Of a stretch of 64,000 bases of DNA, positions 26,285 through 44,019 are shown in pieces. The position numbers were made by a program, and so were the translations under genes. Source of the stretch: Treponemataceae bacterium (GTDB lineage Bacteria; Bacillota; Clostridia; Lachnospirales; Lachnospiraceae). Under the pieces are notes generated by a model. That model had not been told where the DNA came from. It made no database searches and worked only from the letters and a program-made list of their open reading frames with translations. How positions within the stretch are numbered: position 1 is the first letter of the stretch; the number at the start of each line of letters is the position of its first letter. The stretch covers positions 6,578 through 70,577 of the forward strand of contig CAVBWS010000002.1 in NCBI GenBank assembly GCA_963599255.1. Direction: 5' to 3'.

Positions 26285-26420
26285 AACATTTCTATCCTGT
26301 TCTTCTTTTCCTTCGTTTTTATTGTAAATGATATTTGTTTTGAATACAATCCAACATTAGATTTCTTTAACAATCCATTTGCCGGCTTTGGTTGAACCCT
26401 CTCGTACAATGATTCCCCCT

Positions 26421-26576: not shown

Positions 26577-26878
26577 ATACAGATATGACTGTCATTGAAA
26601 TCGTTTTTCTTCTTACATTGACAAGTAGAGCCTAGATAACACGAAATACGCAGCCAATTGCAGAGACTGAAATACTTTTATATCAAGAATGGTCATCCCC
26701 ACATAACATGCCTGTTCTTCGTTCGGTCTTGCATTTTTTCGTTTTTTCTTATATTCTGACAGGGTTGGATATTTGTCATCCTAAACGATATGCGCCATAT
26801 TTCATGTCCTGAAAAAAACACATAAAACATGCCAAACGAATAACCTGTGCCAGCAGAAAAACTGTCGGAGGAAGCCAT

Positions 26879-27589
26879 ATGGAAACCTTTACTGATTGTT
26901 CCAAATTAGATTTTTATATTGAAAAATACAATATCCAGTCCTTTTTCTCCCCGAAATTATGGGAACATTATAGAGAATGTATGGTACTTACACGTTTTCA
27001 TGTAGATGAATACATTCAGAACCATAGAGGTGGAACACACTATTTATATATTTTTTTGAATGGCAAAATAAAGGTCTGTTCCCTCACCAGCAATGGAAAT
27101 GAAGCACTTTTAAACATGATCACAGGTATGTGCGTGATGGGAGATCTAGAAATATTCGATTTGGAAGCTTCCAATATTACCATCGAAGCCATGAAGGATT
27201 CGTATGCCATTGAGCTTCCTCTGGATAAAGTTAAATCATACATCGACCAGGATCCTGTATTTCTGAAATATTTGGGTCAGCTGCTGGCGCAAAAGATCAA
27301 TAATTTTTCCAACAACGTAGCGGTTAATACCAGCTTTCCGCTTATAAATCGACTTAGCGCCTACATTAGCTTTGCAGCGCAGTCGGTGACCTTTTCCGGG
27401 GAAACCTATCTGTATTTTCACGAAGACCTCACCACCTTATCCCAACTGCTTTTTACCAGTTACCGTCATTTACTACGTACCTTAAAGGAGCTGCGGGAGC
27501 TGCAGATCATAGAACCACATAAGCGAGGGTATTTCATCACGGATGAAACCGCACTCCATGCCCTCGCCTCTGATAAGTATCTAAAATAA
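26879..27589 (+). CDS. Crp/Fnr-family transcriptional regulator (cNMP-binding-like domain plus C-terminal HTH; no FNR Cys cluster)
   Basis: 236 aa with beta-roll region YLYIFLNGKIKVCSL...GDLEIF and C-terminal HTH SQLLFTSYRHLLRTLKELRELQII. It is convergent with the 3' end of the GRE operon. Confidence 0.8.
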   Translation: METFTDCSKLDFYIEKYNIQSFFSPKLWEHYRECMVLTRFHVDEYIQNHRGGTHYLYIFLNGKIKVCSLTSNGNEALLNMITGMCVMGDLEIFDLEASNITIEAMKDSYAIELPLDKVKSYIDQDPVFLKYLGQLLAQKINNFSNNVAVNTSFPLINRLSAYISFAAQSVTFSGETYLYFHEDLTTLSQLLFTSYRHLLRTLKELRELQIIEPHKRGYFITDETALHALASDKYLK

Positions 27590-27620
27590 TAAACACTTGG
27601 AAGATTTTTCTGAAAACTGA

Positions 27621-27944
27621 TCACTTCTGTTCAAACAGTTCAATGATGGTATCATCCTTGATGATGAATGCCAACCGTGTTTTTTCGTCAAAACTCAATG
27701 GTGGAAAGATTATCTGATCTGCATCTTCCAGATATGGTGTCATATCATCTACTTTGTATGCCACGTGCGGATTTTTGTGCATAATTTCCGGAAATGGCGT
27801 TCCTTCTTCAAATTTCAAGTATTCAATCTTATAATCATAGTCATCCACATCAGTATTAACCCAGAATTTCAGTGTCTCATTGTATACCATATTTGGTTTT
27901 TTATTTGTTACCGGAATTCCTACATGCATATATTCTGCTGCCAT
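27621..27944 (-). CDS. Small VOC (glyoxalase/dioxygenase fold) family protein
   Basis: 107 aa with MHVGIPV and HVAYKVDD metal-ligand-like motifs. It is the last gene of the GRE operon. Confidence 0.55.
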   Translation of the reverse strand: MAAEYMHVGIPVTNKKPNMVYNETLKFWVNTDVDDYDYKIEYLKFEEGTPFPEIMHKNPHVAYKVDDMTPYLEDADQIIFPPLSFDEKTRLAFIIKDDTIIELFEQK

Positions 27945-27962
27945 GTTATACCCTCCATACCA

Positions 27963-28841
27963 TCATTGCTTCGTATCCAAAAAAAATTCGTAAGCTTCCT
28001 TATCCGTGAAGTGCTCGTGTACTACTTTTGCGATTGCCTGTGCCATAGCTCTAGGATTCTCGCTCTGGAAAATATTTCTTCCCATATCAACGCCGTGTGC
28101 TCCCTCACTGATAGCTCGATAAGCCATGGTAAGAGCTTCCTGTTCAGGCAGTTTCTTACCTCCGGCAATGATGATAGGAACCGGACATGCTGCCACAATC
28201 TTTTCAAAATCCTCGCAGTAATATGTCTTAATAAAATGCGCACCATGCTCTGCCAGCATCCTAGTTGCCAGAAGGAAAAACTTCGGTGTCCGTTCCATCT
28301 GCTTTCCTACCGCTACAACACCAAGCACAGGCATGCCATATCGATTACCTGCATCTACGTATCGGCACAATGTTTCCAGAGATCTTGCCTCCCCCGGTGC
28401 ACCAATGAAAGTCTGCACCGCCACTGCCTGGGCATTCATTCGGACAGCATCTTCCATCTCCACACCAATACCATTTCCAACGGACATATCGTCATAAAGA
28501 ACAGATGCGTCATAGGTTGCCCGCAAGCAAACAGACGGGTGCATGGTCGGAGAAAAGCTGGAACGGATCGCCCCTCGTGTACCCATAAATACATCCACAT
28601 ACTCTCCTAACGGTGCAATCGTTACGTCGAGTCTCTCCAATCCTGCCGTAGATCCCATGATATAGCCATGGTCAAAGGCCAGCACTACAGCATTGCCGGA
28701 CACCGGGTTAAAAATATGCGAAAGACGATTTTTCAGTCCAAAGTCATTATTATTAAGTCCCTTCAGATAAAATGCCTCCGATACGACCGGCACATCCAGA
28801 TAATATTCTTTGCTTTCTCTATTTCCAATGTTATCAGCCAC
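27963..28841 (-). CDS. LsrF-like class I aldolase/thiolase (DhnA/FbaB-LsrF family)
   Basis: 292 aa. RLSHIFNPVSGNAVVLAFDHGY..GLERLD..IAPL, FIKTYY (Schiff-base Lys region), IIAGGKKLPE and GVDMGRNIFQS align almost block for block with E. coli LsrF as I recall it. Confidence 0.8.
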   Translation of the reverse strand: MADNIGNRESKEYYLDVPVVSEAFYLKGLNNNDFGLKNRLSHIFNPVSGNAVVLAFDHGYIMGSTAGLERLDVTIAPLGEYVDVFMGTRGAIRSSFSPTMHPSVCLRATYDASVLYDDMSVGNGIGVEMEDAVRMNAQAVAVQTFIGAPGEARSLETLCRYVDAGNRYGMPVLGVVAVGKQMERTPKFFLLATRMLAEHGAHFIKTYYCEDFEKIVAACPVPIIIAGGKKLPEQEALTMAYRAISEGAHGVDMGRNIFQSENPRAMAQAIAKVVHEHFTDKEAYEFFLDTKQ

Positions 28842-28913
28842 AATAAACCTCCTGTTATTTAAATCGCTACGGCGTTTTACCTGTTTTCACATCGGTTACC
28901 GCAGCAGTGTATG

Positions 28914-29909
28914 TTATCGGGAAAATGCAAATGTTCTCGCTGGCGTATTCCATAGTTTCAGGAATTCCTCGTCCCATTTTGAAATGTTGAGTTGAAAACC
29001 TGCCTGTTCCTGAACAGTCAATACCTCTCCTACCATATTGGCAACAACCTCAATTCCCTGAGATTCCAGATACTTTACACAGTCCTTATAAAGTATGAAC
29101 ATTTCCATTAATGTGGTAGCCCCGGATCCATTGACCATCACAAAGCATTTGTCTCCTCTCTTAAGTGGAATATCCTTTATCAGGGCATTTGCCATGATCT
29201 CAATAGTTTCTTTTGCGCTCTTCATTGATTGGCGTCCGCCACCACCTTCACCATGCTGACCCATGCCGATTTCCATATCATCATCACCGAGATCCCCGAA
29301 GGATTCTCCATTAGCCGGATGTGTAGCGCAGCGTACCGCAACAGAAATGGTAGCCATTGAATCCGCATAACGCTGTGCCAGATTAGCAACTTCATCAAGA
29401 TTTCTGCCCTCCCTGGCAGCGGCTGCGGCGATATGGTACAGTGGAACCGCACCGGCAAGACCTCTTCTATCATCAGAATTTTCTCTTGGTGCATTTGCGA
29501 TGTCTTCCTGGGTAACTACTTTACGAACATTCAGTCCCTCTCGCTGTGCCATCTTCATTACCATGTTGCCGCACAACATATCGCCTGCATGATTCAGTAC
29601 CAAAAGCAATGTCCCGTGTCCTTTATCGGCCAGCTTCAACGCTTCAAATACATCTTGTGGACTCGGAGCCGCAAATACATCTCCAACTACCTGAATATCC
29701 AGCATGCCGGATCCCACGAATCCCATCTGTGCCGGCTCATGTCCGGAACCGCCCATGGTAACAATTGTTACCCTGTCCGCTTTTTCCAGATCCCTGCTGA
29801 TTACCAGATGTCCCTTTACCTCTACAAGATCTGCCGCACATAAGCTGTATCCCTCCAGCAGCTCATCCGTTAATGTTTCTGCACTATTTAAAAACTTTTT
29901 CATCTTCAT
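28914..29909 (-). CDS. dhaK: Dihydroxyacetone kinase, DhaK subunit
   Basis: MKMKKFLNS...LEGY, VTMGGSGHEPA and GDVFAAPS are canonical DhaK motifs. The ATG at 29909 lies about 6 nt after GGAGGA. Confidence 0.85.
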   Translation of the reverse strand: MKMKKFLNSAETLTDELLEGYSLCAADLVEVKGHLVISRDLEKADRVTIVTMGGSGHEPAQMGFVGSGMLDIQVVGDVFAAPSPQDVFEALKLADKGHGTLLLVLNHAGDMLCGNMVMKMAQREGLNVRKVVTQEDIANAPRENSDDRRGLAGAVPLYHIAAAAAREGRNLDEVANLAQRYADSMATISVAVRCATHPANGESFGDLGDDDMEIGMGQHGEGGGGRQSMKSAKETIEIMANALIKDIPLKRGDKCFVMVNGSGATTLMEMFILYKDCVKYLESQGIEVVANMVGEVLTVQEQAGFQLNISKWDEEFLKLWNTPARTFAFSR

Positions 29910-29927
29910 GGTATGTTCCTCCATTTG

Positions 29928-30527
29928 CTATGCCTGATAGCCTTTCTGAAATCCCTCAAATATCAACGCCATAGAGCAGGCACCCGCATCCTTTACGCCA
30001 ATGGATCGTTCGCCATAGTTTTTCGCCCGTCCAAATTTTGCTATATAATCGCTTGTTCTCTCTGCCCCTTTTCTGGCCGCCTCTGCTGCCAGTGCAAATG
30101 CCTCTTCATCTGTTTTCGCACCCTTCATCGCTTCCACTGCCGGAATCAGCGCATCCATCATGGTCTTTTCTCCTACCTTCGCGGTACTTAATGTCTGTAA
30201 CTCCTTAAGGGCACATTCTGCGTACTCCGCAGCACTGGCATCCGGCGACGCATTCTGGAAACCGGAGAAAAATGTACCAAACAATGGACCAGCACTTCCG
30301 CCCTGCACATTGATGGCATCCCATCCCAGATCATCGAAAAGCTTTGCAGTAGATTCGTGATCATATTGCACTTTTTCCTTCATTAAATGTGCTATCTTGG
30401 CAATAGTAATACCATGGTCTCCATCCCCGATCACCGCATCAATCTTCGATAGCTCATTTGCATTCTCAAGCAGCAGATCAGCTGTCACATCCAGCATATG
30501 TTTCCACTGTCCTAATGTAATCGCCAT
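29928..30527 (-). CDS. dhaL: Dihydroxyacetone kinase, DhaL (ADP-binding) subunit
   Basis: LSKIDAVIGDGDHGITIAKI and GGSAGPLFGTFF are canonical DhaL motifs. The ATG at 30527 sits at the RpiB stop. The longer ORF-track start lies inside rpiB. Confidence 0.85.
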   Translation of the reverse strand: MAITLGQWKHMLDVTADLLLENANELSKIDAVIGDGDHGITIAKIAHLMKEKVQYDHESTAKLFDDLGWDAINVQGGSAGPLFGTFFSGFQNASPDASAAEYAECALKELQTLSTAKVGEKTMMDALIPAVEAMKGAKTDEEAFALAAEAARKGAERTSDYIAKFGRAKNYGERSIGVKDAGACSMALIFEGFQKGYQA

Positions 30528-30528
30528 A

Positions 30529-30993
30529 TCATACCTCCTGATAAATCTTTTTTTCGATTGCCTTGATCTTCTCCTGTGCATCCAGAAGAAAGTCATGAAA
30601 ATCGTCGAGACCATCCGTAATCTGTGTTTCCAGGAAGGTATCAACAATCTGGCATCCCAAGAACGGAGCAATAATAAACCCTCCCATAGCTAATACATTG
30701 GAATTGTTAATTGCCCGAGACATCTTCGCTGCGAAAGTGCTTTCAACCACAGCCGCACGGATTCCCTGGTAGCTATTTGCCATCTGAGCCATACCCATAC
30801 CAGTGCCGCAGCACAGGATCGCATAGTCAAATTCTCCCTTTTGAAGTGCCGGTGCTATCTCTGGAACAATATCATAGTATTCTCGTGCCTGTGGCGCATA
30901 ATCGATACAGATTATGCCTTTTGCTTCCAAATGTTCCTTTACTGCTTCCTTTAATGCAAAACCGGAAGCATCCGCTCCTATCGCTATCTTCAT
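30529..30993 (-). CDS. RpiB/LacA/LacB-family sugar-phosphate isomerase
   Basis: MKIAIGADASGFALKEAVKEHL and CCGTGMGMAQMANS (catalytic Cys region). Confidence 0.85.
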   Translation of the reverse strand: MKIAIGADASGFALKEAVKEHLEAKGIICIDYAPQAREYYDIVPEIAPALQKGEFDYAILCCGTGMGMAQMANSYQGIRAAVVESTFAAKMSRAINNSNVLAMGGFIIAPFLGCQIVDTFLETQITDGLDDFHDFLLDAQEKIKAIEKKIYQEV

Positions 30994-31081
30994 ATTCCTT
31001 CTTCTCCTTTATCTGTTTACCATTGATCTGAACAATGGTTTTATCTTTTCTTTCACTGCATGCAGCCTTGTGCTATCCAAT

Positions 31082-33556
31082 TTATACTGATAGTTCTTCC
31101 CTCTCCATAATGGATTCCTGCAATTCCTTTGTAAGATCCACGAACACAGCACTATAGCCTCCTACCCGTACCAGCAAATCCCGGTAACTATCCGGATCCT
31201 TCTGTGCACGTGACAGATCCTTTGCATCCAGCACCAAATACTGAATCTGTTGTCCGCCGGCATCCATATAGGTTTTCACCAGATCCATCCATTTTTGAAT
31301 ATCACGTTCGCCTGTCACGGCACTGATCGGAATCCGTTGATTGAAGGTAACGCCATTCGTAGTATGGTATGTATCGATCGCCCTAGCTGCTGAACGATGT
31401 CTCTCTGTGATACTTCCCTCCTGTGCATACCGAGAAGGAGCAACGGAATCTGACAGAGGTTCTTCGTTTCTTCTTCCGTCCGGGGTTGCTCCCGTCCAGC
31501 TTCCAAGCGTAAGGTAGCTTTCCATGCTAATGAGGCCTCCGATAAAATGCCCGCCATGGGCAGTTCGATGCGATTCCAAATTTTCAAACCAATAGTCCAG
31601 AACCTTTTTGCAGAAAAGATCCGCATATGGGTTATCCTTTCCATATTTCGGCGCTTCAATGCATTTCCTGCGAAGCTCCTCGTATCCTTCCCAATTCCTG
31701 GACAGAGCTGTTTTCAATTCTTTCCAATCAGTCACCCTCTCCCGATAAATCAGAGTATCAATAGCGCTCAGACAGTCTCCCGCGGTTCCAAGCCCAATTC
31801 CCAAAGGACCAGTCCAACTGTATCGTGAACCGCCATTTACAAAATCAATACCGCTTTTTCGCGAGGTTGGATGCATCAGATTGTGCCATACTGATGGGTA
31901 AAATGTGGTAAATACATAGTCATTTACATTGTTGGTCACCACGTTCATTTCTACGGCATACCTCATCTGCGCTTCTACCGCAGCCAGAAATTCCTGCATA
32001 GTCGCAAAGCTTTCCGGTTCTCCGGTTACAGGTCCTACCTGTCTTCCATTGCACGGATTAACTCCATTCCAGATGGCAAGCTCAACGGGCTTTACCAGAC
32101 TGAAAAATCCACCATTTTGTCTTCCGGATGTATCCGCTCCCGTCATATTAGGATCCGTTACATTTTCCTGACATCCCACATCCCCATAATTGCGGGCATC
32201 TCCCAGTGACACACCACAATTACTTACCATACCGGGGATTATGGCGTTATCATTAAGAAGCAGCGGCAAGCCACCGCCTAACCTTAATACATCCAATGCT
32301 GCATGAAGCAGCGCGTCCGGCGTTTCATGGTTTATACGAACCGACAGTGCCGGATCTGTCAGATGCACATGGGCATGAGCTTCCAACAACATATATGAAA
32401 GCTCATTGGTTGCGTCATACCCCTGCGTATCGATACCCCCGAGATTGATCTTGTCATTGTTTCCTCTTGGACACCCAATGCCCATAGTAAATGCCGTACT
32501 CTCATTCCATTTCAGGAACAAGCATTCCAGCAGTTCCTGTGCCTGTTTTCTATTGATTTCCCCTGTCTCCAGATCTCGCTTAAGGATAGGCAGCATGTAC
32601 TGATCAAAACGTCCCAAAGAATGAGAGTCCATTCCCTCGATCAGGGAAGTGCCTGCGCGTAGAAAGTGGATGCACTGCAACGCTTCCCACCAGGTCCTGG
32701 CAGGATATTCTGGTACCTGCCGACAATTTTTAGCCATCTGCGAAAGTTCCGCCTTGCGTTTCACATCTGTTTCCTTTTCCGCAAGCTGCTGTGCATAATC
32801 AGCATTTCGATGTGCATAAGTAATCATCGCCTCAGCTGCGATAAGCATCCCCTTCATCTGATCTCGCCGTTCCAGTGTCGTCATTCCCTCCGGGTTTCGG
32901 ATATCCAGCTGTTCCATTTCCTGCCTAATCTCCTGCATCAAACCCGATAGTCCTTTTTCAATAACAGAACGGTAATCCTGGATCGTATGTGCCAACGGAC
33001 CTCCTACCGTCGGAATATAACACTGACTGTCATTCATAAATTGATATGCTTCCGGATAATTCAGCGCCATTTCCTTCAGCAAATAGTCCATACGTCCCTT
33101 GTTTTTCCAATATGGAAGGATCTGCTCCTGAAATTCCCGCAGTTCCTCGGGATCGTAGACATAAATTCGATCCAGCTCCGCACAGGTTCCTTTTTCTGGA
33201 AAATCCAGTGCCGGGAAATGCGGATTAAAATCCACATAATGCGGTCCCGCACTTGCACCTCCCATCAGAAGCTGTCCTTCGGTAAGTCCTAGCGGGATTT
33301 CCTCTAATCCCCGCTTGATGGATAATGCTCTGCGTATCGCCGGATGCAGCCCTTCAGTTTCCATGTAGGAACGAGTCACACTGACTGCCCAATGAAATGA
33401 AAGCCTTCGCTTCCCTTTATAATATCGAGGAAGCATGCCTCGTCGAATTTTCTGAATCCGCTGTTCTTCCGGATCATCCTCTCGCAATATCATTTGGTCA
33501 AAAAACTCTCCGGTAAAGGGCATATTCTTTTCTCTCCACCACGCACTTCCTGCCAT
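31082..33556 (-). CDS. Glycyl radical enzyme of the PFL2/eliminase class; substrate unknown
   Basis: 824 aa with C-terminal glycyl motif LVRVGGYSAVF. The Cys loop is VGCQE, a single Cys followed by Glu as in GRE dehydratases/lyases, not the CC of pyruvate formate-lyase. The ATG at 33556 lies 8 nt after AAGGAG. Confidence 0.9.
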   Translation of the reverse strand: MAGSAWWREKNMPFTGEFFDQMILREDDPEEQRIQKIRRGMLPRYYKGKRRLSFHWAVSVTRSYMETEGLHPAIRRALSIKRGLEEIPLGLTEGQLLMGGASAGPHYVDFNPHFPALDFPEKGTCAELDRIYVYDPEELREFQEQILPYWKNKGRMDYLLKEMALNYPEAYQFMNDSQCYIPTVGGPLAHTIQDYRSVIEKGLSGLMQEIRQEMEQLDIRNPEGMTTLERRDQMKGMLIAAEAMITYAHRNADYAQQLAEKETDVKRKAELSQMAKNCRQVPEYPARTWWEALQCIHFLRAGTSLIEGMDSHSLGRFDQYMLPILKRDLETGEINRKQAQELLECLFLKWNESTAFTMGIGCPRGNNDKINLGGIDTQGYDATNELSYMLLEAHAHVHLTDPALSVRINHETPDALLHAALDVLRLGGGLPLLLNDNAIIPGMVSNCGVSLGDARNYGDVGCQENVTDPNMTGADTSGRQNGGFFSLVKPVELAIWNGVNPCNGRQVGPVTGEPESFATMQEFLAAVEAQMRYAVEMNVVTNNVNDYVFTTFYPSVWHNLMHPTSRKSGIDFVNGGSRYSWTGPLGIGLGTAGDCLSAIDTLIYRERVTDWKELKTALSRNWEGYEELRRKCIEAPKYGKDNPYADLFCKKVLDYWFENLESHRTAHGGHFIGGLISMESYLTLGSWTGATPDGRRNEEPLSDSVAPSRYAQEGSITERHRSAARAIDTYHTTNGVTFNQRIPISAVTGERDIQKWMDLVKTYMDAGGQQIQYLVLDAKDLSRAQKDPDSYRDLLVRVGGYSAVFVDLTKELQESIMEREELSV

Positions 33557-33586
33557 AGTCCAATCTCCTTCATTCATGCAGTCTCT

Positions 33587-34609
33587 CTAAAACAAGAAAA
33601 CCACCTTCGTCGCTTTATGATTTTTTACCAGATTGAATCCATACACACAGTCTTCTGGCTGCAATACATGACTAATATATTCATAAGGATTAATCTTTCC
33701 TTCTAATACAAGCTGCGCCATTTCTTCATTGGCATCTTCTTCATCCGGCCAGCGCACCCACACACGAGGGTCATTACGCAGTTCAGGTGCCCAGGAAAGT
33801 CCCGGAGCTGCGCCATAGAGCTGTACGGTTCCCTTTTCCCCTACAACATCCAGACAAGTCTTAAGTGCACTGTCGCTTCCAACAGCTTCGATTACCTTTA
33901 ACAGGCCTCCGTCATCAAGTATCTTTTTTAGTTCATCCGGATATTTATCACCAACGACATACAGGTCTGCTCCCGCCGCAGTGAATTTCTCTCGATGATC
34001 CTCTTTTCTGCCAAATACCACTATAGGACTTGCTCCCATTACCTTAGCAAACTTGGTAAAGCAATATGCCACAGGGCCGGTACCTACTATGCCCAGTGGT
34101 TCGCCTGCCTTGACATCAAAGTTTCTGAGAGTAGTCCATGTCTCTTTCAGCGTGATCATGATCGCTCCCTGTACGCTGTCGATTCCCTTCGGCAGGATCT
34201 GATGCTTAGTCGCCTGATAATTTAACGGAATATCAGCTCCATCTTCTTTTATCGCTGCCAGATCCTGTACAACACCATATTCACTCATGCCGCCTTCTGA
34301 ACCAATCCCTCCAGGATAATGACCCCAAGTATGGGCACGAAGCACCCTGTCACCGATCTTAAAATTTCGGCATTTCTCGCCCAATTCAATGACCACACCA
34401 CAGGATTCATGTCCCAAATTAATAGGCAGTCCTTCCGGGAATCCACCGCCTTCAGGTCCTCCAAATACGCGGTTAACAAACATCATGTCTGTATTGTTGC
34501 AGATAGCGCAGGCCTCAATCTTTACCAACGCTTCATAAGGTCCAGGCTTTGGTACAGGGATCTCCCCCAGCATAACTTTTCCCGGTTCCGATGAAATGAT
34601 TGTCTTCAT
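33587..34609 (-). CDS. Zinc-dependent medium-chain alcohol/polyol dehydrogenase
   Basis: CAICNNTD and GHESCGVV are the Zn ligands. GIVGTGPVA is the Rossmann motif. Confidence 0.8.
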   Translation of the reverse strand: MKTIISSEPGKVMLGEIPVPKPGPYEALVKIEACAICNNTDMMFVNRVFGGPEGGGFPEGLPINLGHESCGVVIELGEKCRNFKIGDRVLRAHTWGHYPGGIGSEGGMSEYGVVQDLAAIKEDGADIPLNYQATKHQILPKGIDSVQGAIMITLKETWTTLRNFDVKAGEPLGIVGTGPVAYCFTKFAKVMGASPIVVFGRKEDHREKFTAAGADLYVVGDKYPDELKKILDDGGLLKVIEAVGSDSALKTCLDVVGEKGTVQLYGAAPGLSWAPELRNDPRVWVRWPDEEDANEEMAQLVLEGKINPYEYISHVLQPEDCVYGFNLVKNHKATKVVFLF

Positions 34610-34637
34610 ATGTAATACCTCCATTTTTTTGATAACT

Positions 34638-35558
34638 TTATCCGCCTGTTTCTACGCGGAATCCCTTCTGTTCCAGATAGCGTTTCCACTGCTCCAACTC
34701 TGTTGTATCTTCTGCAGATTGCCGAAGTGCTTTTTTCTCCGGCAGCGCATAATCTCTTCCCAACCTTTTGTATTTATCTTTCCCCAATTGATGAAAAGGC
34801 ATCAGATGAATTTCCCGAACAGCGGTATCCTGTAAAAATGCTGCCAGCATCCTCAGATTTTCCTTTTGAAAATTAAGTCCAGGGATTACCGGTATCCGGA
34901 TAATGATCCTGCTTCCGTGTTTTATAAGACGCCGCAGATTTTCCAATATCAGGTCATTCGATACACCCGTTAACGTTTTATGAATCTGCGGATCCATATG
35001 CTTCAGATCATACAGAAAAAGATTTGTATACTCTGCTGCCTGCTCCAAGATTCTCCATTTCGTATTACCCGTGGTTTCCACTGCCGTATTGATATTTCGT
35101 TTGTAACAGTTCTCAAGGATCCCAATTGCAAATTCCTCTTGCAAAAAGGGTTCTCCTCCGGAAAGGGTGATGCCGCCTCCAGATTTTCGATAATAATCCC
35201 TGTCCCTTTGTACCTGTGCCACAACCTCCTCAACAGACATTTGTTTTCCCACCATGCGAAGCGCTCCGACAAAACAATGTTCCGTACAGATACCGCAGTT
35301 GTCACATACAGTCCTGTCAATCTGATTGCACCGCTGACCCTCGAAAATCGTAATAGCATGCCGCGGGCATACAATAATGCATTTGCCGCATTTGATACAT
35401 TTCTGATACCTATATTCCAGTTCTGGAAAAGTATGCTGGGATTCCGGATTGCAGCACCAAAGGCATCGCAAGGGACAGCCCTTTAAAAATACCACCGTCC
35501 GAATTCCAGGTCCGTCATGAGTTGAATATTTCTGGATATCAAATACTGTTCCTTTCAT
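34638..35558 (-). CDS. Glycyl-radical enzyme activating enzyme (radical SAM, with two auxiliary ferredoxin-like clusters)
   Basis: CPLRCLWCCN is the CxxxCxxC motif. CIKCGKCIIVCP and CDNCGICTEHC are the auxiliary clusters. GGGITLSGGEP is the SAM motif. Confidence 0.9.
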   Translation of the reverse strand: MKGTVFDIQKYSTHDGPGIRTVVFLKGCPLRCLWCCNPESQHTFPELEYRYQKCIKCGKCIIVCPRHAITIFEGQRCNQIDRTVCDNCGICTEHCFVGALRMVGKQMSVEEVVAQVQRDRDYYRKSGGGITLSGGEPFLQEEFAIGILENCYKRNINTAVETTGNTKWRILEQAAEYTNLFLYDLKHMDPQIHKTLTGVSNDLILENLRRLIKHGSRIIIRIPVIPGLNFQKENLRMLAAFLQDTAVREIHLMPFHQLGKDKYKRLGRDYALPEKKALRQSAEDTTELEQWKRYLEQKGFRVETGG

Positions 35559-36352
35559 CAGGTGTTAAATTCCGGATTTTCTTCCGGCTTATAAATGTAC
35601 GGAATCATAACTTTGCCACCATCAATTAAAATATTTTCTGCAGTGATCCAGCCAGAATATTCATCACTTGCCAGTACCACGCACATGCGCCCATGGTCCT
35701 TATAGCAATCACCACAACGTCCCAGTGGAATAGTTTCCGCAATTTTATCTGCTACCTCATGCATAAAAGTATTCATACCGGTAGGGGTTGGTCCCGGAGC
35801 AATAGAATTGACACGGATATGATGAGGAGCCAGTACCCCAGCCAGTGCCAATGTTATCGCTTGTACACCGCCTTTTGATGCGCTGTAACCCACGCCCTCC
35901 GGAAAGCAGGAAGAAACGGCCTCTGAAGAAAAATTCACTATAGAACCGTGCACCTTATTTTCAATCATGGTTTTTGCAACAATCTGTGTCACGATGAATA
36001 CACTCTCCAGATTTATCTTCACTTCCCTTTCAAATTCCTCCACCGTCTGCTCAAAGAAATCCTTCCAGTAAATTACACCGGCATTGTTGATCAAGGTTGT
36101 AACCGGTCCAAAAGTGTCGATAGTAAGCTGTACCATCGCCTTTACGCTTTCCGGATCCGTTACATCTACTCTGGTCGCAATCGCTCTGCCGCCCGCATCT
36201 GTGATCTCTTTCGCAACGTTTTTTGCATTTTCCTCATTAAGGTCACATACCATAACTGCTGCACCGTGATCTGCCAAGGCCATAGCAACGCCTCTGCCGT
36301 TTCCGCGCCCACTTCCTGTAACGATAGCCACCTTGTCATTTAACTGTAACAT
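35558..36352 (-). CDS. SDR-family oxidoreductase
   Basis: VTGSGRGNGRG (TGxxxGxG variant), NNAG and YSASKGG (YxxxK) motifs. The stop shares 1 nt with the activase start. Confidence 0.9.
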   Translation of the reverse strand: MLQLNDKVAIVTGSGRGNGRGVAMALADHGAAVMVCDLNEENAKNVAKEITDAGGRAIATRVDVTDPESVKAMVQLTIDTFGPVTTLINNAGVIYWKDFFEQTVEEFEREVKINLESVFIVTQIVAKTMIENKVHGSIVNFSSEAVSSCFPEGVGYSASKGGVQAITLALAGVLAPHHIRVNSIAPGPTPTGMNTFMHEVADKIAETIPLGRCGDCYKDHGRMCVVLASDEYSGWITAENILIDGGKVMIPYIYKPEENPEFNT

Positions 36353-36406
36353 CTGTTTCTCCTCCTATTTTTATGTTCTCTATCGTGTTTTCTTTTTTGT
36401 ATCTCA

Positions 36407-36479
36407 ATTATAAAATCCTGTTCCTTTTTCTTCGCTGACACATGTCACATAAAGTCGATTATTTATATGACAAATGTCA
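36407..36479 (-). promoter_or_regulatory. Promoter/operator region of the GRE operon: -10 TATAAT plus two TGACA-NN-TGTCA palindromes
   Basis: On the minus strand TATAAT lies at 36412..36407. Palindromes TGACACATGTCA (36436..36447) and TGACAAATGTCA (36468..36479) are 32 bp apart. The proximal site ends 23 nt upstream of the -10. Confidence 0.5.
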
Positions 36480-36576
36480 CAGCAATATCAGAGTTAAAAA
36501 AACGGGATCCTGATAAATATCAGAATCCCGAAAAAAAGGTAGGGCATAAAAGCAACCTCGCTTTTACCACAATATA

Positions 36577-37779
36577 TTATTTCCATGTACCTGCTCCTGC
36601 CACCAGGATCTCCTGAGGTACATGGCTTAACCGAACCGCTCCATTTATTCCTGTCAGGAAGTTGTCGCAGCAGAATATGTATGCATCCTCAGTAATTCCG
36701 AAAGGATGAATAGCAATATTCATGTTTTCTTCTATCCGCATTGTCTCCGCCTCATAGATTACCGGACGTTCTGCCAACTCATAACCCTGTCCATGAGAGA
36801 AGATCATTCCACGGTTCGGATAATCCCGCTCTCGCATAAACCTTTCGTTGAAGGCTGCTATCTCCTTCGGCGACGCACCTTTTTTCATAAGAGCGGCCGC
36901 TTGCTGCTGTGCTTCTCTGGCGATTTCCCAGCCCCTTAGCAGCCGTTTGGAAGGTTCACCGATACAGATAGTTCTTCCTACCTCTTGATACATGCCGCCC
37001 GGTCCGCTGACCTCCAGCATCACCAGTACCTGATCTCCCGGCTGCAATATCCGTTTCATCAGATAGTCCATTTTATGAGACGCCGGCATTCCCATGGGAG
37101 CTGAACCTACCACGATCATCTGCTCCTCGCTTCCAAGTTCCACCAGAAGATGCCTGATATCATTTGCCACCTCATACTCACGTCTTCCGGGACGCACAAA
37201 GGCAGGAACTGCTGCAAATGCAGCATCTACAATATCAGCTGTCTTTTTTATCAGTGCAATTTCTTCTTCACTCTTAACGCACTTGATGCTGTCAGTTTCT
37301 TCTGTAAAATCCACAAATTCCGCATCCGGAAGCGACTCTTTCAGACAACGCCAGGTAGCCGCAGACATGGCAGCAGGTGCTATCAGACCAATTTTCTGAT
37401 ATCCTCCATTTTTCAACACAGCAACAGCTGCATCACCATCTTCCCGATTGGTATAATGTATCCCACGATAATAAGGAAGCACAATATCCTCACGAATGCC
37501 GCGCATCATCCATGACGGCAGGGTCAGAGAAGGGATATTGCCCTCGGTAATAATGGTCATCTCTTCCTCCAACGGAAAGATTACCGTAATAGGGGTTCCG
37601 AATTTTGTGGGTATATCCGTAAACCAACGAACATAGCCACACATGAAGGATTCACTGTTTTGCAGTACCAGACAATCCAACCCAGCATCTTTCATTTTTC
37701 TTCTGACAGCTCTCCAGCGTCTATTTAACTCCTGATCCGATATCGGATATAATGCATTTTCTAATAATTCCCTATCCAT
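36577..37779 (-). CDS. M24-family (Xaa-Pro peptidase/creatinase-fold) hydrolase
   Basis: 400 aa with an N-terminal creatinase-like domain (DAGLDCLVLQNSE) and a C-terminal pita-bread region (FSHGQGYELAERPVIYE, MNIAIHPF). Confidence 0.7.
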   Translation of the reverse strand: MDRELLENALYPISDQELNRRWRAVRRKMKDAGLDCLVLQNSESFMCGYVRWFTDIPTKFGTPITVIFPLEEEMTIITEGNIPSLTLPSWMMRGIREDIVLPYYRGIHYTNREDGDAAVAVLKNGGYQKIGLIAPAAMSAATWRCLKESLPDAEFVDFTEETDSIKCVKSEEEIALIKKTADIVDAAFAAVPAFVRPGRREYEVANDIRHLLVELGSEEQMIVVGSAPMGMPASHKMDYLMKRILQPGDQVLVMLEVSGPGGMYQEVGRTICIGEPSKRLLRGWEIAREAQQQAAALMKKGASPKEIAAFNERFMRERDYPNRGMIFSHGQGYELAERPVIYEAETMRIEENMNIAIHPFGITEDAYIFCCDNFLTGINGAVRLSHVPQEILVAGAGTWK

Positions 37780-37792
37780 ATCTTGTCTCCAT

Positions 37793-38761
37793 CTATTCTG
37801 TTTTGGACTCTGCCAACTTCTTTTTATCCGACCTGAGGTTTATCCCCTCTGTACGAATGGTGATAAATAAGATCACCATCAGCAGTATTCCCTCAATCAG
37901 TTCTGAGTATTCGCTGGACGCAATTCCCATCAGCTTTAAACCATTTTCAATAATAACAAATACCAGACATCCAATGATCATCTTATAGGTTGAAGCGGTA
38001 GAACCACCTTTTACAAGGATACCTCCTACATAGATCGCGATCAGAGAACGCATTTCAAACATAGTACCCATGGAAGTTGTCGTACCTCCGCTTCTTGCAA
38101 TGATAAACATTCCTGCAATCGCGGCAGTCAGTCCAGAGATCATAAAGCAGATTATTTTCAAACTGATCACTGGCTTTCCAACGCTGACAGCCAGCACTTC
38201 ATTTTCACCGATTGCCTTGATATCCCTTCCGAATGAGGTACGTTCCAGAAAGTACCATGAAAACGCAAGCACCAAAAGCAGGAATGGAAGTTTAATACAA
38301 ACCTTATCAATAGCCTTGATAAATGTGCCGGCATATGTAAGTCCCGTAAAGCTTTGAATATAATTTATAATACCCCTAACCCCGATCAGCATAGCAAGAG
38401 TTACCATGAAAGATGGTACCTTGAATTTTGCGTTGATGATGCCATTTAAAGCACCTAGTCCAATGCCTATCGCAAATGCAGTAAGCAGCATCAGCAGTAC
38501 ACTCCCCGTTGCTGTAAATACAACATCTCCTACTACAGCGCTTAGTCCTGCGTTAACGCCTACAGAAAGATCACTGCATCCAAGTGCTACCACAAAAATT
38601 GCCCCACTGCACAAAACCAGCAGCACCACGACCTGATTCAACAAAGAATTCAAGTTAAATGGTGTAAACATTTTCCCTTTAGTCAGAATCCCAAAGAGCA
38701 GCAGGATCACCACCAAAGTGATAAAAGGAACCAGTTTTCGTATATCGATTCTATTCTTCAT
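37793..38761 (-). CDS. Ribose/monosaccharide-type (CUT2) ABC transporter permease
   Basis: 322 aa, RbsC-like polytopic protein. Its ATG shares 1 nt with the ATPase stop. Confidence 0.85.
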   Translation of the reverse strand: MKNRIDIRKLVPFITLVVILLLFGILTKGKMFTPFNLNSLLNQVVVLLVLCSGAIFVVALGCSDLSVGVNAGLSAVVGDVVFTATGSVLLMLLTAFAIGIGLGALNGIINAKFKVPSFMVTLAMLIGVRGIINYIQSFTGLTYAGTFIKAIDKVCIKLPFLLLVLAFSWYFLERTSFGRDIKAIGENEVLAVSVGKPVISLKIICFMISGLTAAIAGMFIIARSGGTTTSMGTMFEMRSLIAIYVGGILVKGGSTASTYKMIIGCLVFVIIENGLKLMGIASSEYSELIEGILLMVILFITIRTEGINLRSDKKKLAESKTE

Positions 38762-40266
38762 CAGACCATCACCTCGATCAATGCTTCCTGGGTAAAATTC
38801 TCTCCCCGTATAAATTCTCCTGTAATTTTTCCGTCCTTCATCACCAATAATCTATCCGACATGCCCAACAGTTCCGGAAGTTCATCCGAGATCAAAATCA
38901 TGGAAAGTCCTTTTTTCTTTGCTTCTGCCATAACATGGTAGATATACGCCTTGACACTGACATCCACTCCTCGGGTCGGGCAGTCCAGTACCAACACATT
39001 CAGATCTTTTAAAAGCCACCTTCCCAGGTTGACCTTCTGCTTATTGCCGCCTGAAAGGTCCGACATACGCTGTCCCGGTCCGACGCATTTGACATTAAAT
39101 TCCTCGATTCCCTTCTGCGCAAATGCTTTCAGTTTGCCTGGCCGCAGATACATTGCCTTTCCCTGCAATTCCTGTGTTGATGGAAGGACGAAATTGCTTA
39201 GTATCGTATCTGAGATCATGAGAGCTGCTCCATCTCTGTCCTTTGGTACATATGCCATACCATGTTTTTGTGCCGTAACAGCATTGTTGATTTCGACATT
39301 CTCCTGCATGCACAGGCGAACTTCTCCCTTTCGTCCTTCAGAAAGTCCAAAAATCGCCATACCTACATCATGGATACCAGAGTCACTCAGTCCGCCAAAT
39401 CCCAGGATTTCTCCCTTGTGAAGTTCAAAAGAAACCCCTTCCAATGCATGCGGGACCTCCACATTTTCTACCTTCAGCACAACCTCATCCTCATAGTTTG
39501 CTTCCAAATCTTCCCGATAGTATGCAGAATTAACCTCTCGGCCTACCATCAGACGTTTAATCTCATCTACCGTCAGTTCGCTGCTTTTTCGATCTGCTAT
39601 GATCTTGCCATCCCGCAGCACAGTAATGTTATCGCACAGCTCCAACATTTCCTCTAGGTCATGGGTAATGATCACAATGGTCTTACCTTCACTTTTCAGA
39701 CGATGGATCAACCGATAGAGCATTTCCCTGTTATTTTGAGACAATGACTGGGTCAGCTCATCCAGAATCAAAATGTCCGGATCTTCAGACAGCGCCCTGG
39801 CAAGTTCCAGCATTTTCCGGGATTCGATATGCATTTCCGAGCAGTCTCCGTTCAGAGGGATTTTCATCAGCCCATATTCCTCAAATATTTCCTCTGCCTT
39901 CCGATACATCTTCTTGATGTTCACGAAGCCATATTTGGCAAAACGATCCCAGCTTCCCGCAAAAACATTCATGCCTGCAGGCAGCGTGTTCAGTACGCCC
40001 AGCTCCTGCACTACAATGCCGATCTTATTCTTTTTTGCATCTAATGGACTTTTGGGATCATAAGATTTTCCATGTAATGTAATGGTTCCCTCATCCTTTA
40101 GATAAATACCGGCTATCTGCTGCAAAAGCGTGGATTTTCCAGATCCGTTTTCTCCCGCCAGTCCTCGTACTTCACCCTTTTGCAGTGAAAAATCAATATG
40201 GTCATTGGCGATAGTCGGTCCAAAATATTTGCAAAGTCCTTTTACCTCTAAAATTGTTTCCATCAT
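38761..40266 (-). CDS. Sugar ABC transporter ATP-binding protein with two fused ABC domains (RbsA/LsrA-like)
   Basis: 501 aa with GENGSGKST and a second ABC half containing LSGGNKQK. Confidence 0.9.
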   Translation of the reverse strand: MMETILEVKGLCKYFGPTIANDHIDFSLQKGEVRGLAGENGSGKSTLLQQIAGIYLKDEGTITLHGKSYDPKSPLDAKKNKIGIVVQELGVLNTLPAGMNVFAGSWDRFAKYGFVNIKKMYRKAEEIFEEYGLMKIPLNGDCSEMHIESRKMLELARALSEDPDILILDELTQSLSQNNREMLYRLIHRLKSEGKTIVIITHDLEEMLELCDNITVLRDGKIIADRKSSELTVDEIKRLMVGREVNSAYYREDLEANYEDEVVLKVENVEVPHALEGVSFELHKGEILGFGGLSDSGIHDVGMAIFGLSEGRKGEVRLCMQENVEINNAVTAQKHGMAYVPKDRDGAALMISDTILSNFVLPSTQELQGKAMYLRPGKLKAFAQKGIEEFNVKCVGPGQRMSDLSGGNKQKVNLGRWLLKDLNVLVLDCPTRGVDVSVKAYIYHVMAEAKKKGLSMILISDELPELLGMSDRLLVMKDGKITGEFIRGENFTQEALIEVMV

Positions 40267-41222
40267 TTCACCACCTTCTTTACGCCTCGCTGTGCCATGA
40301 TACCAAATACAATTACGATCAAGCCCAGCACAGCTTCCTGCAGAGTTCCGGATGGAACACCTGCAATGGTCAGCATATTAAAAAGCGCATAAACAAAAAG
40401 CGAACATATAGGAACACCAATTATGATATTAATACGAGATTTTAAGACTTGTGCCAGCATAACAGCCGCAATAGGCTGAAAGATCATAGTCATGCCGGTA
40501 AGTCCACTCTTAATATTCATACGTGAATTATAGCTTTCATTCAGGAACGCAGAACAACCCACAAATATTCCCACAATGATACCCACGAGTAAAATTGTTT
40601 TTACAATGTTAATACCCATGGCTTCGGAGATGCGCTGTCCGCTTCCCAGGGAGCGGACCTTCAGTCCAATCGTTGTGTAATTATAAAGAACATACGCAAG
40701 AATAAAACCAACGAAAAATACAACATAGATCATAGGTGCCCTTGCAAGTTCCCGCATATCCTCACTCAACTGGGCGATAGATCCTCCATGGGAGAACTGA
40801 TAATTGGAGTAAAAAACTCCGACCGCCTCATAGACCATTACCATGCCGATGCTGACAATCCACGACGGAATCCTTGATTTGGCAAACAGCAGAAAATTGA
40901 TCATGACACAGATAATAGATACCACCATGGCTCCCAGAATGATCCCAAAATATCCCAGTGATGTTGAGCCCAGAATGCCGGCTGCATTTGCAGCAAGGAT
41001 TACAATTGGGCCTAACGACATATCAGTAAAATCACAGGCAAATACAAAGCACAGTGCCCACCCCAAAAAACACGGAATGATCGCATGTGGAAAAAGCGCA
41101 AGAATGTTATTGCTTGTCAGGAATATCCGTCCGGTAAGAAAATGAAAAACGATACATACCACAGCAACCAATGCAAGAACGATCACAAGACGGACGATAC
41201 TTTTCTTCTTTTTTGTCTCCAT
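40263..41222 (-). CDS. Ribose/monosaccharide-type (CUT2) ABC transporter permease
   Basis: 319 aa, polytopic and RbsC-like, with a 4-nt overlap with the ATPase gene. Confidence 0.85.
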   Translation of the reverse strand: METKKKKSIVRLVIVLALVAVVCIVFHFLTGRIFLTSNNILALFPHAIIPCFLGWALCFVFACDFTDMSLGPIVILAANAAGILGSTSLGYFGIILGAMVVSIICVMINFLLFAKSRIPSWIVSIGMVMVYEAVGVFYSNYQFSHGGSIAQLSEDMRELARAPMIYVVFFVGFILAYVLYNYTTIGLKVRSLGSGQRISEAMGINIVKTILLVGIIVGIFVGCSAFLNESYNSRMNIKSGLTGMTMIFQPIAAVMLAQVLKSRINIIIGVPICSLFVYALFNMLTIAGVPSGTLQEAVLGLIVIVFGIMAQRGVKKVVK

Positions 41223-41285
41223 AAAAATCCACCCTTCTCCTTAACGAGGTCGGTACTGACTCGCACCGGCCTCGTTTTTCTATAG

Positions 41286-42383
41286 TCAGTCTGTGCTTGT
41301 CTCTATACCGTAGTTCTCGATAAATTCCACGAAGGTCTCATATGTTGCATCGTCTGCAATAAGCTCTGCGAAATGCTCCGCCGTAAGAGGATGTCCTTCC
41401 AGATAATATTTAGAAAAATCGTCTGCATTATCTGCTGTAATAACAAACGGAACCACATTGTTGAAATGCGGAGCATTTCCGTCTTTGTCAGTTATGCGGT
41501 TGCCTTTTGCATTATTGATAAGCAGTGCAGAAGCGATAGGGATAACGATCTTAGAACCGCTGTCCGCGTAAGCGATCGTTCCATCTTTAATATATTGGAT
41601 ATTTTCTGCTGTTGCACCGGATACATATATCTTTAAATCCAGATCACTGTGATTATTCAGTGCCGCAATAGCTGCTACTGCATAGTCACCTGAAAGAGCA
41701 TAAATTGCTTGTGCCTGTGTGTTAGCGATCAGAAGATCATCACATTTCTGAGTTCCTTCAGAAGGATCCGTACATCTGGCAGCTGCCATCAGGGTTCCTC
41801 CTCCTTCGGTAAACGCATCTGTAAATCCTGCCACGCGCTTGTCATGAATTGTATCTCCTACTGAACCGCCCAAAACCAGAGCCTGTGTATAACCATCTGC
41901 CAGCATATTCTGTGCTGCCTGTACACCTTCTGCATAGCTATCTGTACCTACACAACCCAAATAGTATTCATTTTCATTGAGCATTGCGAGCACTGCTTCA
42001 TCATTAGGGATCTGATCAAACATGGTAAAATACGTACCGGCCGATTTCAGGATGGATGAAATCTGCTCATACGCAGCCGTATTCCATCCATATATCAAAA
42101 GCCCGTCATAGCCTCGGCCCGCCATTGTTTCCACATTAGACATCTGCATATCTGCAGTAAAGTTGTCATTGTAAATCTGGAAGGTATAACCAGCGTTTTC
42201 AAAATTGTACTGCATCTCACTGACGAACAGATCCAGTGCAGCACCTCCCTGTCCTACAATGTCTCCCGCAAAGCTGTAGTCTGCCGCCTTTGTAATCTGT
42301 GCATTTAGACCACTTGCAGATACCAAAATTACCCCCATAGCAACCGCAAGAATCTTTACCGAATTTTTTCTTGAAATTGTCAT
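41286..42383 (-). CDS. Periplasmic-binding-protein type I (RbsB/LsrB-like) sugar-binding protein
   Basis: About 365 aa from the ATG at 42383, about 6 nt after GGAGGA. It has a signal/anchor sequence but no lipobox Cys. Confidence 0.8.
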   Translation of the reverse strand: MTISRKNSVKILAVAMGVILVSASGLNAQITKAADYSFAGDIVGQGGAALDLFVSEMQYNFENAGYTFQIYNDNFTADMQMSNVETMAGRGYDGLLIYGWNTAAYEQISSILKSAGTYFTMFDQIPNDEAVLAMLNENEYYLGCVGTDSYAEGVQAAQNMLADGYTQALVLGGSVGDTIHDKRVAGFTDAFTEGGGTLMAAARCTDPSEGTQKCDDLLIANTQAQAIYALSGDYAVAAIAALNNHSDLDLKIYVSGATAENIQYIKDGTIAYADSGSKIVIPIASALLINNAKGNRITDKDGNAPHFNNVVPFVITADNADDFSKYYLEGHPLTAEHFAELIADDATYETFVEFIENYGIETSTD

Positions 42384-42452
42384 CTCTGTTTCCTCCATTT
42401 CATCCATAAAATAATTTTTCCAGCCTTCTCTGGTTCCCTTCCTTACAGCATT

Positions 42453-42526
42453 ATTCTACTGCAGCGGATAATGTCACAGCTATGACATATGTCATAGCAT
42501 TAATAAAAAAATTATGACACATGTCA
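42453..42526 (-). promoter_or_regulatory. Promoter/operator region of the ABC-M24 operon: -10 TAGAAT plus two TGACA-NN-TGTCA palindromes
   Basis: On the minus strand TAGAAT lies at 42458..42453. TGACATATGTCA (42483..42494) sits inside the perfect 16-bp palindrome TATGACATATGTCATA (42481..42496). TGACACATGTCA lies at 42515..42526. The spacing is again 32 bp. Confidence 0.5.
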
Positions 42527-42681
42527 CATTGTTAAGCGATATTTACAGTCAGCTATACTTGCATCTATCAGTCGGATCTGCGACTTGTACTCATTAAAAT
42601 GTTTGCCGACTGATGCACAAAAAAAGACTTTTGCATTATTGATATACAAAAGCCTTTTTATACTATATTTATATGCTATTT

Positions 42682-43539
42682 TCAGAATCTGATGTTTTTT
42701 CGGTCTTCCCAAAAGAGTTGAACATTTCGAAATTCCGTCTGCAGTTCCCGCATACTATGCTGCACTTGACCTCTTGCATCTGCTTCCGGCACCGCTTCGT
42801 TTTCCGGAATCATACGTACGCTTTTTCCATTCTTCCAATGAACTCCATGCCATACAGTAAAAATCGTTTCCTGCCCATCCGGAAGATCTCTGATATAACG
42901 TACTGCCGTGGCATAACGAGGGAACCGCGAAATGTGATACAGCGGATAGGATATCCCGTTTCCTCCGCTGATCCCGATACAGGCCGCATCCCTTTCAGAA
43001 AGACTGTTGTCTATCCCCAGAATTTGCGCATTAAGCGGTGCGACAAACTCCACTGCCTCCAGGCCGCATCCCACATCTTCAATTGCCATATTGATATAAT
43101 GTCGCAGGTGTGCTCCAGGAAACCAGATTTTATAAAACAGATCTTGTTCTTCAGGTCTGAAATGATCTTGAAAAAACCGCATTTTCTCCTCAGTGATCCC
43201 CTCGCCCTTCACCCTGATAAGAGAAAACCCTATTCCATTTTTCATGACCCTATATCCCGTACGGAGCCTATTGATCTCCGATGTATTCATGATTTTGGCA
43301 TAATCCTCAGGCATAAAGCATTCTTCTTCTGCCAACAAGGTGCCTCTTTGTGCTGCAAGTTCATTTTCCGGTGTTGCGTTCGCCGCTCCCAAATAGAAAT
43401 ATTTGGCATAAGGAGATTTCTGTTCTTCTTCTGTAAGTTGTAGCGACATGGTTTTAATTTCCGAATCCCAGTCACTTATTTCCCAAGATCCTCGTCCGCA
43501 ATTCTGTACCTGCCAGATGGTTCGTTCTTTATCTGCCAT
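42682..43539 (-). CDS. Hypothetical protein, possibly of the DAPG/phloretin hydrolase (PhlG-like C-C hydrolase) family
   Basis: About 285 aa. The size and a C-terminal HxxxE (VQHSMRELQ) preceded by WHGVHW resemble the PhlG/Phy zinc site as I recall it. The assignment is weak. Confidence 0.4.
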   Translation of the reverse strand: MADKERTIWQVQNCGRGSWEISDWDSEIKTMSLQLTEEEQKSPYAKYFYLGAANATPENELAAQRGTLLAEEECFMPEDYAKIMNTSEINRLRTGYRVMKNGIGFSLIRVKGEGITEEKMRFFQDHFRPEEQDLFYKIWFPGAHLRHYINMAIEDVGCGLEAVEFVAPLNAQILGIDNSLSERDAACIGISGGNGISYPLYHISRFPRYATAVRYIRDLPDGQETIFTVWHGVHWKNGKSVRMIPENEAVPEADARGQVQHSMRELQTEFRNVQLFWEDRKNIRF

Positions 43540-43760
43540 TGCCATTTCCCTCCTCTGAATTTATGTTCCCTTCGGCTGTTTTAATCGCCACTATAAAGAA
43601 TGGGTCGCAACCTGTCAAGAAACTGGCCCTATATTTATCTTCAGAAGAAACATTGACAAAACTCTTTCGGAAGTATGATAATGTCCCTGTGATTGCTGCG
43701 CTTGATTATATATTGCGAATGAAATTATGAGATTGAGAGTACTTTATCCTAATGTCCTGA

Positions 43761-43802
43761 ACAACAAAACACCGGGATCACTCGTAATCCAAGTGATCCC
43801 GG
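43761..43802 (-). terminator. Intrinsic terminator downstream of tRNA-Ser
   Basis: CCGGGATCACT-(9 nt)-AGTGATCCCGG followed on the minus strand by TGTTTTGTTGTT. Confidence 0.6.
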
Positions 43803-43814
43803 CATTCCATCCAG

Positions 43815-43902
43815 CGGAGAAGGAGGGATTTGAACCCTCGCGCCGCGTTAACGACCTACACCCTTAGCAGGGGCGCCTCTTCGGCCTCTTGAGTACTTCT
43901 CC
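43815..43902 (-). tRNA. tRNA-Ser (anticodon GCT)
   Basis: On the minus strand: GGAGAAG...CTTCTCC acceptor stem, anticodon stem CGCCC/GGGTG with loop CTGCTAA, a long variable arm and a T-loop GGTTCAAATCC. CCA is not encoded. Confidence 0.9.
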
Positions 43903-44019
43903 TCATTAGTCCAAAGTCTGTAAGACTTCTGTTAAATTATGCACTGCCAAGTCACAGTGCAAGATGTATTTTACAGGAGTCTCTGCATTTTGTCAAGAAC
44001 AACGAAGGAAGGAAATCTT

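Follow-up and report, generated by a model that had tools for sequence, protein, structure and literature searches.

Paired palindromes in front of two operons of a glycyl-radical-enzyme locus as probable sites of an adjacent YeiL-like regulator of the Crp/Fnr family

The window (the whole stretch of 64,000 nucleotides that was analysed) contains two operons read from the minus strand, each preceded by a pair of short palindromes, and a regulator gene on the opposite strand that converges with the 3′ end of the first operon. The features are listed by position, and the palindromes are given without strand.

26879..27589, plus strand: gene for a YeiL-like Crp/Fnr-family regulator of 236 aa that converges with operon 1 at its 3′ end
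27621..36352, minus strand: target operon 1
36407..36412, minus strand (the plus strand reads ATTATA): predicted −10 hexamer TATAAT of promoter P1, its offset conserved in orthologues
36436..36447: P1 proximal predicted regulator site, TGACACATGTCA, predicted centre −41.5
36468..36479: P1 distal predicted regulator site, TGACAAATGTCA, predicted centre −73.5
36503..36530, minus strand: intrinsic terminator at the end of the upstream ABC/M24 operon, just upstream of P1
36577..42407, minus strand: target operon 2, a CUT2-type ABC importer with an M24 creatinase-fold hydrolase
42453..42458, minus strand: predicted −10 hexamer TAGAAT of promoter P2, conserved in the close relative G401
42483..42494: P2 proximal predicted site, TGACATATGTCA inside TATGACATATGTCATA, predicted centre −42.5
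42515..42526: P2 distal predicted site, TGACACATGTCA, 32 bp from the proximal site

Operon 1 begins with an SDR, a glycyl radical enzyme (GRE) activase, a Zn-ADH and the GRE itself, and later encodes DhaL, DhaK, an LsrF-like aldolase/thiolase and a 107-aa protein. The GRE (831 aa) comes nowhere near any NCBIfam equivalog cut-off; the aldolase (27963–28841, minus strand) reaches 385 bits vs. a curated cut-off of 297 with the LsrF model, which describes 3-hydroxy-5-phosphonooxypentane-2,4-dione thiolase. Operon 2 runs from a Peripla_BP_4 binding protein through a permease, a double ATPase and another permease to the M24 hydrolase. The literature that we searched gave nothing useful on a GRE/LsrF/DhaK pathway.

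Orthologous loci were compared from a genome labelled Anaerotignum sp. (G401, with a regulator 92% identical to that of the window), from Brotonthovivens ammoniilytica (G402, 49%), from a Eubacterium sp. MAG (G379, 48%) and from two metagenomic lineages (L122 and L123–127); the window genome itself is G000. The M24 hydrolase (36577–37779, minus strand) is the last gene of the transporter operon in the window genome; in G379 and G402 it is part of the GRE operon, where it separates the SDR from the activase, and this links it to the pathway. Neither a regulator homologue nor paired sites turned up in G278 (98% complete), the only further genome of the genus that was searched, and the locus thus appears to be accessory within the genus.

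In front of the SDR-GRE operon, direct reading of the sequence reproduced the two P1 palindromes at the coordinates given in the preliminary description, with the same 32 bp from start to start (about three helical turns), as well as a minus-strand TATAAT 23 nt downstream of the proximal 12-mer. The same description had found no convincing −35, and we agree: P1 lacks one because GCGAAG occupies the spot 17 nt upstream of TATAAT, and a consensus promoter scan returned no complete sigma-70 promoter on the minus strand at P1. Nor does this TATAAT carry a TG extension. A weak alternative promoter (CTGATA, 18 nt, TATAAA) that spans the distal site can be drawn by eye. Because the terminator at 36530–36503 closes the upstream operon, P1 is an independent promoter. 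Its transcription start is predicted near 36400, in which case the leader would be about 48 nt long.

The second pair of palindromes, starting at 42483 and 42515 and also 32 bp apart, bears out the earlier report of two matching promoter architectures. Its proximal 12-mer lies 24 nt upstream of the minus-strand TAGAAT, before the binding-protein gene, so that the offset from core to hexamer is 25 nt, vs. 24 at P1. The likeness between P1 and P2 is confined to the boxes of 12–16 bp, and the 20 bp between the boxes differ; the locus has just two intergenic regions that bear promoters, and each contains one of the pairs. A half-site, GTGACA (42472–42477), was considered as a −35 for P2 and rejected because it is not conserved in G401. 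A search for RNA elements in the leaders with Rfam over 26000–44000 gave only a tRNA (43815–43902).

Sites of this kind are far more frequent in the window than chance predicts. Four perfect copies of TGACANNTGTCA occur in it, vs. 0.05 on average and at most 1 in dinucleotide shuffles, with none of 100 reaching four. The genome (2.04 Mb in 83 contigs, 97.8% complete) holds eight perfect sites vs. about 2.3 expected from its base composition. The four outside P1 and P2, three of them in or at the edge of ORFs and one an isolated site of the TTGACA type, look like chance occurrences; further regulon members in the genome were rejected because these other perfect sites are intragenic or isolated. 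With P1 and P2 set aside, the genome is thus left with no more sites than chance predicts, which speaks for a role at these two promoters.

The product of the convergent gene had been assigned to the Crp/Fnr family, which stands, but it is more precisely YeiL-like than an orthologue of CRP or FNR. It has a cNMP-binding-type beta-barrel domain (PF00027, E = 5.4e-9, 36.4 bits vs. a cut-off of 27.5), and a C-terminal winged helix-turn-helix matches HTH_Crp_2 at 21.8 bits, below the cut-off of 27. Positions 33–225 of the family profile align with solved CRP-family structures (E = 2e-12), and an AlphaFold model of moderate confidence (mean pLDDT 70.5) places helices at 184–191 and 195–207, followed by a beta-hairpin; despite the sub-cut-off Pfam score, the protein is thus predicted to carry a winged helix-turn-helix of the Crp type. 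Its best NCBIfam match is NF007707 (YeiL; 117.5 bits, E = 6.3e-34), and because the cut-off of that model is 180 we call the protein YeiL-like rather than a YeiL equivalog. It is 28% identical to E. coli YeiL (BLASTP E = 9e-26), and the two have the recognition helix SYRHLL in common (TSYRHLLRTL vs. VSYRHLLYVL), in which S194, Y195, R196, H197, L198 and R200 are invariant across six aligned homologues with 31–48% identity to the window protein. The arginine that contacts cAMP (the equivalent of E. coli R82) is absent: the RTSS segment of Mycobacterium tuberculosis CRP aligns with non-basic residues, and the segment at the position of the cAMP pocket, DLEASNITIEAM, contains no Arg. We found no conserved Fe-S cysteine cluster of the FNR type, since none of the columns invariant in the six homologues is a cysteine. 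A gene pair encoding a HEPN protein and an MNT-type nucleotidyltransferase (25557–26284, minus strand) lies just before the regulator gene.

The case for this protein as the binder comes from other genomes. Searching 400 genera of the same family by whole-protein similarity, we found five regulator homologues (32–48% identity), and a perfect or near-perfect site accompanies all five, next to either the gene or the orthologous operon: G148, G222 and G217 carry a perfect TGACATATGTCA ahead of the regulator gene, G356 a perfect TGACAAATGTCA between the regulator gene and an orthologous ABC transporter, and G379 near-perfect sites before the syntenic operons. A pattern-and-tblastn scan of a public genome collection yielded 456 relatives in Clostridia and the Bacillus cereus group. 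Among the best 80 loci of these 456, picked by a helix peptide pattern, 66 have a single perfect TGACANNTGTCA located 29–270 bp upstream of the regulator gene; this upstream site is TGACATATGTCA in 63 loci, usually extended to TATGACATATGTCATA. Perfect sites number 68 in the 907,592 bp covered, with 66 in the 29–270 bp interval and 2 in the remaining roughly 867 kb. Because the loci were selected by the helix pattern, conservation of the helix among the best 80 is not independent evidence, but the enrichment of the site is. Moreover, operon and regulator gene stay together in all the orthologous loci that we examined (G401, G379 and G402, and G356 for the transporter). At the level of comparative genomics we consider the association of regulator and motif established, and the 5 of 5 homologues, the 66 of 80 loci and the synteny support the earlier proposal that the adjacent Crp/Fnr gene encodes the cognate regulator. 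No canonical site lies upstream of the window's own regulator gene, and autoregulation of that gene was rejected since only a split TGACA-N12-TGTCA and the 11-bp ATGACTGTCAT are found there. The literature searched gave no description of the motif or of a YeiL operator; the mechanism is of a known kind.

The arrangement of sites in front of the SDR gene is the same in five diverged lineages (G000/G401, G379, G402, L122 and L123–127): a core GACAnnTGTC with at most one mismatch, 22–23 nt, a second core, exactly 24 nt, and TATAAT, TATAGT or TATCAT. The intergenic background has diverged to the point that about 50–60% of aligned columns agree. Read from the sequences, a −35 is absent from the SDR promoter of every lineage, the hexamers at its position being, for example, TTTCTG in G379 and ATATGA in G402, and a TGn precedes the −10 in three of the orthologous SDR promoters (G379, G402 and L122). 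The distal site lies 32–33 bp upstream of the proximal one in 6 of 6 SDR promoters and 4 of 5 transporter promoters. With the hexamer set at −12 to −7, the proximal site is centred at −41.5 and the distal one at −73.5 or −74.5, and the 24-nt spacing from core to hexamer across the five lineages thus fits, relative to a predicted start, the class II position proposed in the preliminary description. The transporter promoters agree with this, their proximal site lying 24–25 nt from a TAnnnT hexamer (offset from core to hexamer, hexamer, sites):

G000 and G401: 25 nt, TAGAAT, paired sites
G379: 24 nt, TAGATT, five 17-bp tandem near-sites upstream
G402: 24 nt, TAAATT, a degenerate proximal site and a distal site 33 bp upstream
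G356: 25 nt, TATAAT, a single site

The wider YeiL-like family is large: its members in Clostridia and Bacillus run to hundreds, and E. coli has a distant relative. In its autoregulatory promoters, a TAnnnT at the 24-nt offset occurs in 12 of 72, with TATAAT in the inspected examples from a Bacillus paralogue (L045) and from Brotonthovivens (L032). In about 31 of 72, TTGA stands 14 nt upstream of the core, so that the box falls between this −35 and a CATAnT −10, a placement that predicts autorepression.

Taken together, these observations make it likely that the four palindromes are dimer sites of the adjacent YeiL-like regulator, which would activate P1 and P2 from tandem sites in the class II manner. 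Class II activation with a second upstream dimer fits the constant 24 nt to the hexamer, the lack of a −35 and the position of the distal site on the same face of the DNA. A regulator dimer at about −41.5 or −42.5 would take the place of the missing −35 and recruit RNA polymerase; a second dimer at about −73.5, three helical turns upstream on the same DNA face, would strengthen activation through either cooperative binding or a contact to the alpha C-terminal domain, in the manner of tandem-site (class III) promoters. The sequence bound would be the core GACAnnTGTC, with TATGACATATGTCATA as the family consensus, and the regulon in the window genome would be local, comprising the operon of the sugar-type ABC importer and M24 hydrolase and the operon of the SDR, GRE, DhaKL and LsrF-like proteins. 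The effector is probably a substrate or intermediate of the pathway and not cAMP. Binding, the transcription start, and activation rather than repression are points that we infer from sequence. Details that weigh against this reading are the weak promoter that can be drawn across the distal site of P1, the 25-nt offset at P2 and the lack of a canonical site before the window's own regulator gene. With less assurance, we lean towards a broader reading in which the YeiL-like family shares the operator TATGAC-N4-GTCATA and acts from it as an autorepressor where the box lies between −35 and −10 and as a class II activator where it lies 24 nt upstream of −10, the regulator serving here as a substrate sensor.

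The main rival, which we judge unlikely, is that the same protein is a repressor, whose dimers at about −41.5 and −73.5 would block sigma region 4 and the alpha-CTD until the substrate released them. Catabolic operons are often controlled by substrate-released repressors. Because extended −10 promoters may not need a −35, a protein at −47 to −36 could repress instead, and such a TGn extension is present in G379, G402 and L122; in addition, the autoregulatory sites with TTGA 14 nt upstream of the core, which overlap promoter elements, indicate that repression is also within the range of the family. However, the proximal site is in every case clear of the −10 and of the predicted start, no lineage has a −35, the TATAAT of the window is without the TG extension, and a distance of 24 (or 25) nt to the −10 that is fixed in all lineages is what contacts by an activator would lead one to expect, rather than a steric block. 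We thus continue to prefer tandem-site activation by the YeiL-like protein.

It is considerably less probable that a different protein binds the palindromes and that the Crp/Fnr neighbour is unrelated to them. One such candidate is the product of a LysR-type gene (43939–44934) located 1.4 kb from P2, but this gene is not conserved with the locus: it has no match in G379 at E 1e-8, and the LysR protein found in G402 is 23% identical. Another is suggested by the paired pattern itself, which a search of the 400 genera mentioned above found in eight other genera/genomes (loci L011–L018), in all eight cases before a DUF134 gene that mostly carries a fused NifX-like domain, and with neither the operon nor the regulator of the window near any of the eight pairs. 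These pairs consist of two perfect copies of TGACATATGTCA at a distance of 32–34 bp (e.g., L012 4991–5036 and L017 8969–9013). The distal box provides a TTGACA −35, the proximal box extends over the predicted +1, and a TATAnT −10 is found in the interval, a layout that looks like the operator pair of an autorepressor. The DUF134 protein has a helix-turn-helix resembling sigma-70 region 4, and we found nothing useful on it in the literature searched. Because four of the five such genomes tested have no regulator homologue (the fifth has a weak 23% match), another protein family can evidently use this sequence. A DUF134 protein was nevertheless rejected as the binder at P1 and P2, since the window genome, at 97.8% completeness, contains no DUF134 gene, and the association of regulator and motif in 66 of the best 80 loci and in all five homologues likewise speaks against any other binder. 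We take the DUF134 sites to be a separate regulon with a convergent motif, which would leave the assignment in the window no weaker. That two unrelated families, YeiL-like and DUF134, apparently use the same palindrome means that motif scans alone could mis-assign regulons.

Finally, the view that the palindromes reflect chance, or duplicated promoter DNA with no regulatory role (P1 and P2 are only 6 kb apart, and an origin by duplication is possible), is effectively refuted by the family association, by the shuffles, by the restriction of what P1 and P2 have in common to boxes of 12–16 bp, and by a layout of sites and spacing kept in diverged genomes, and we give it almost no weight.

Class II and tandem-site promoters of CRP and FNR are well known from E. 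coli, such as galP1 and the FNR promoters with a site at −41.5. P1 as predicted here resembles the class II/III promoters in that a TGA-N6-TCA palindrome at −41.5 replaces the −35, and the tandem-site promoters in having a second site on the same helical face some three turns upstream; the Crp/Fnr fold is common to the E. coli proteins and the window regulator. The differences are in the motif (TATGAC-N4-GTCATA vs. TGTGA-N6-TCACA for CRP and TTGAT-N4-ATCAA for FNR), in the absence of both the cAMP-contacting arginine and the conserved FNR cysteine cluster, and in reach, since the window regulator would be local and pathway-specific with two targets, whereas CRP and FNR of E. coli are global. 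The box of Listeria PrfA, TTAACA-N2-TGTTAA, is closer in form, being like the window sites a 14-bp palindrome of the type xTxACA-N2-TGTxAx, with the half-site TAACA rather than TGACA. PrfA is likewise a cyclic-nucleotide-independent activator of the Crp/Fnr family whose site is often at −41.5; we found no specific relationship between the proteins, and the listed solved-structure matches do not include PrfA. The DUF134 (UPF0251) operators share identical TGACATATGTCA pairs and, at 32–34 bp, nearly the spacing of the window, but differ in their repressor layout and in belonging to a different DNA-binding family.

The closest named relative, YeiL (b2163), is the third Crp/Fnr member of E. coli and is poorly characterised, with one known target and one binding site (PMC9308461). 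It lies among nucleoside genes in E. coli, in contrast to the GRE sugar pathway of the window. We found a perfect 16-bp palindrome, TATGAGAAATCTCATA, 53–68 bp upstream of E. coli yeiL (L121 7288–7303, corresponding to about 2255287–2255302 of E. coli K-12 NC_000913.3), and no other perfect copy occurs in the 16 kb examined. The palindrome shares its outer arms with the Firmicute consensus TATGACATATGTCATA and differs in the inner bases (GAG/CTC vs. GAC/GTC), and this TATGAG-N4-CTCATA variant is a candidate YeiL operator.

An uncharacterised glycyl-radical-enzyme pathway in a Clostridia bacterium of the gut type thus gains a probable specific regulator with a defined operator, and the regulator could be used to find the inducing substrate by ligand screening or with a reporter biosensor. 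If the protein is indeed a substrate sensor, its ligand would reveal the substrate of the pathway. A motif for the YeiL branch would also make the regulons of hundreds of Firmicute homologues predictable, with hardly any regulon described for the E. coli founder.

Two smaller features of the comparative set deserve mention. Upstream of the binding-protein gene in G379 (L026, about 11040–11175) there are five head-to-tail 17-bp units, each a site or near-site of the form CGACATCTGTCA(C/T)AAT(A/G), with the promoter-proximal site 33 bp later; this is an expanded array of putative regulator boxes. In 39 of 66 regions of the wider family (loci L032–L110), a second conserved block, TAATTTAnCAT, lies at a constant 28 nt upstream of the autoregulatory box and is followed by TTGA, and it could be an alternative promoter element or the site of a second factor.
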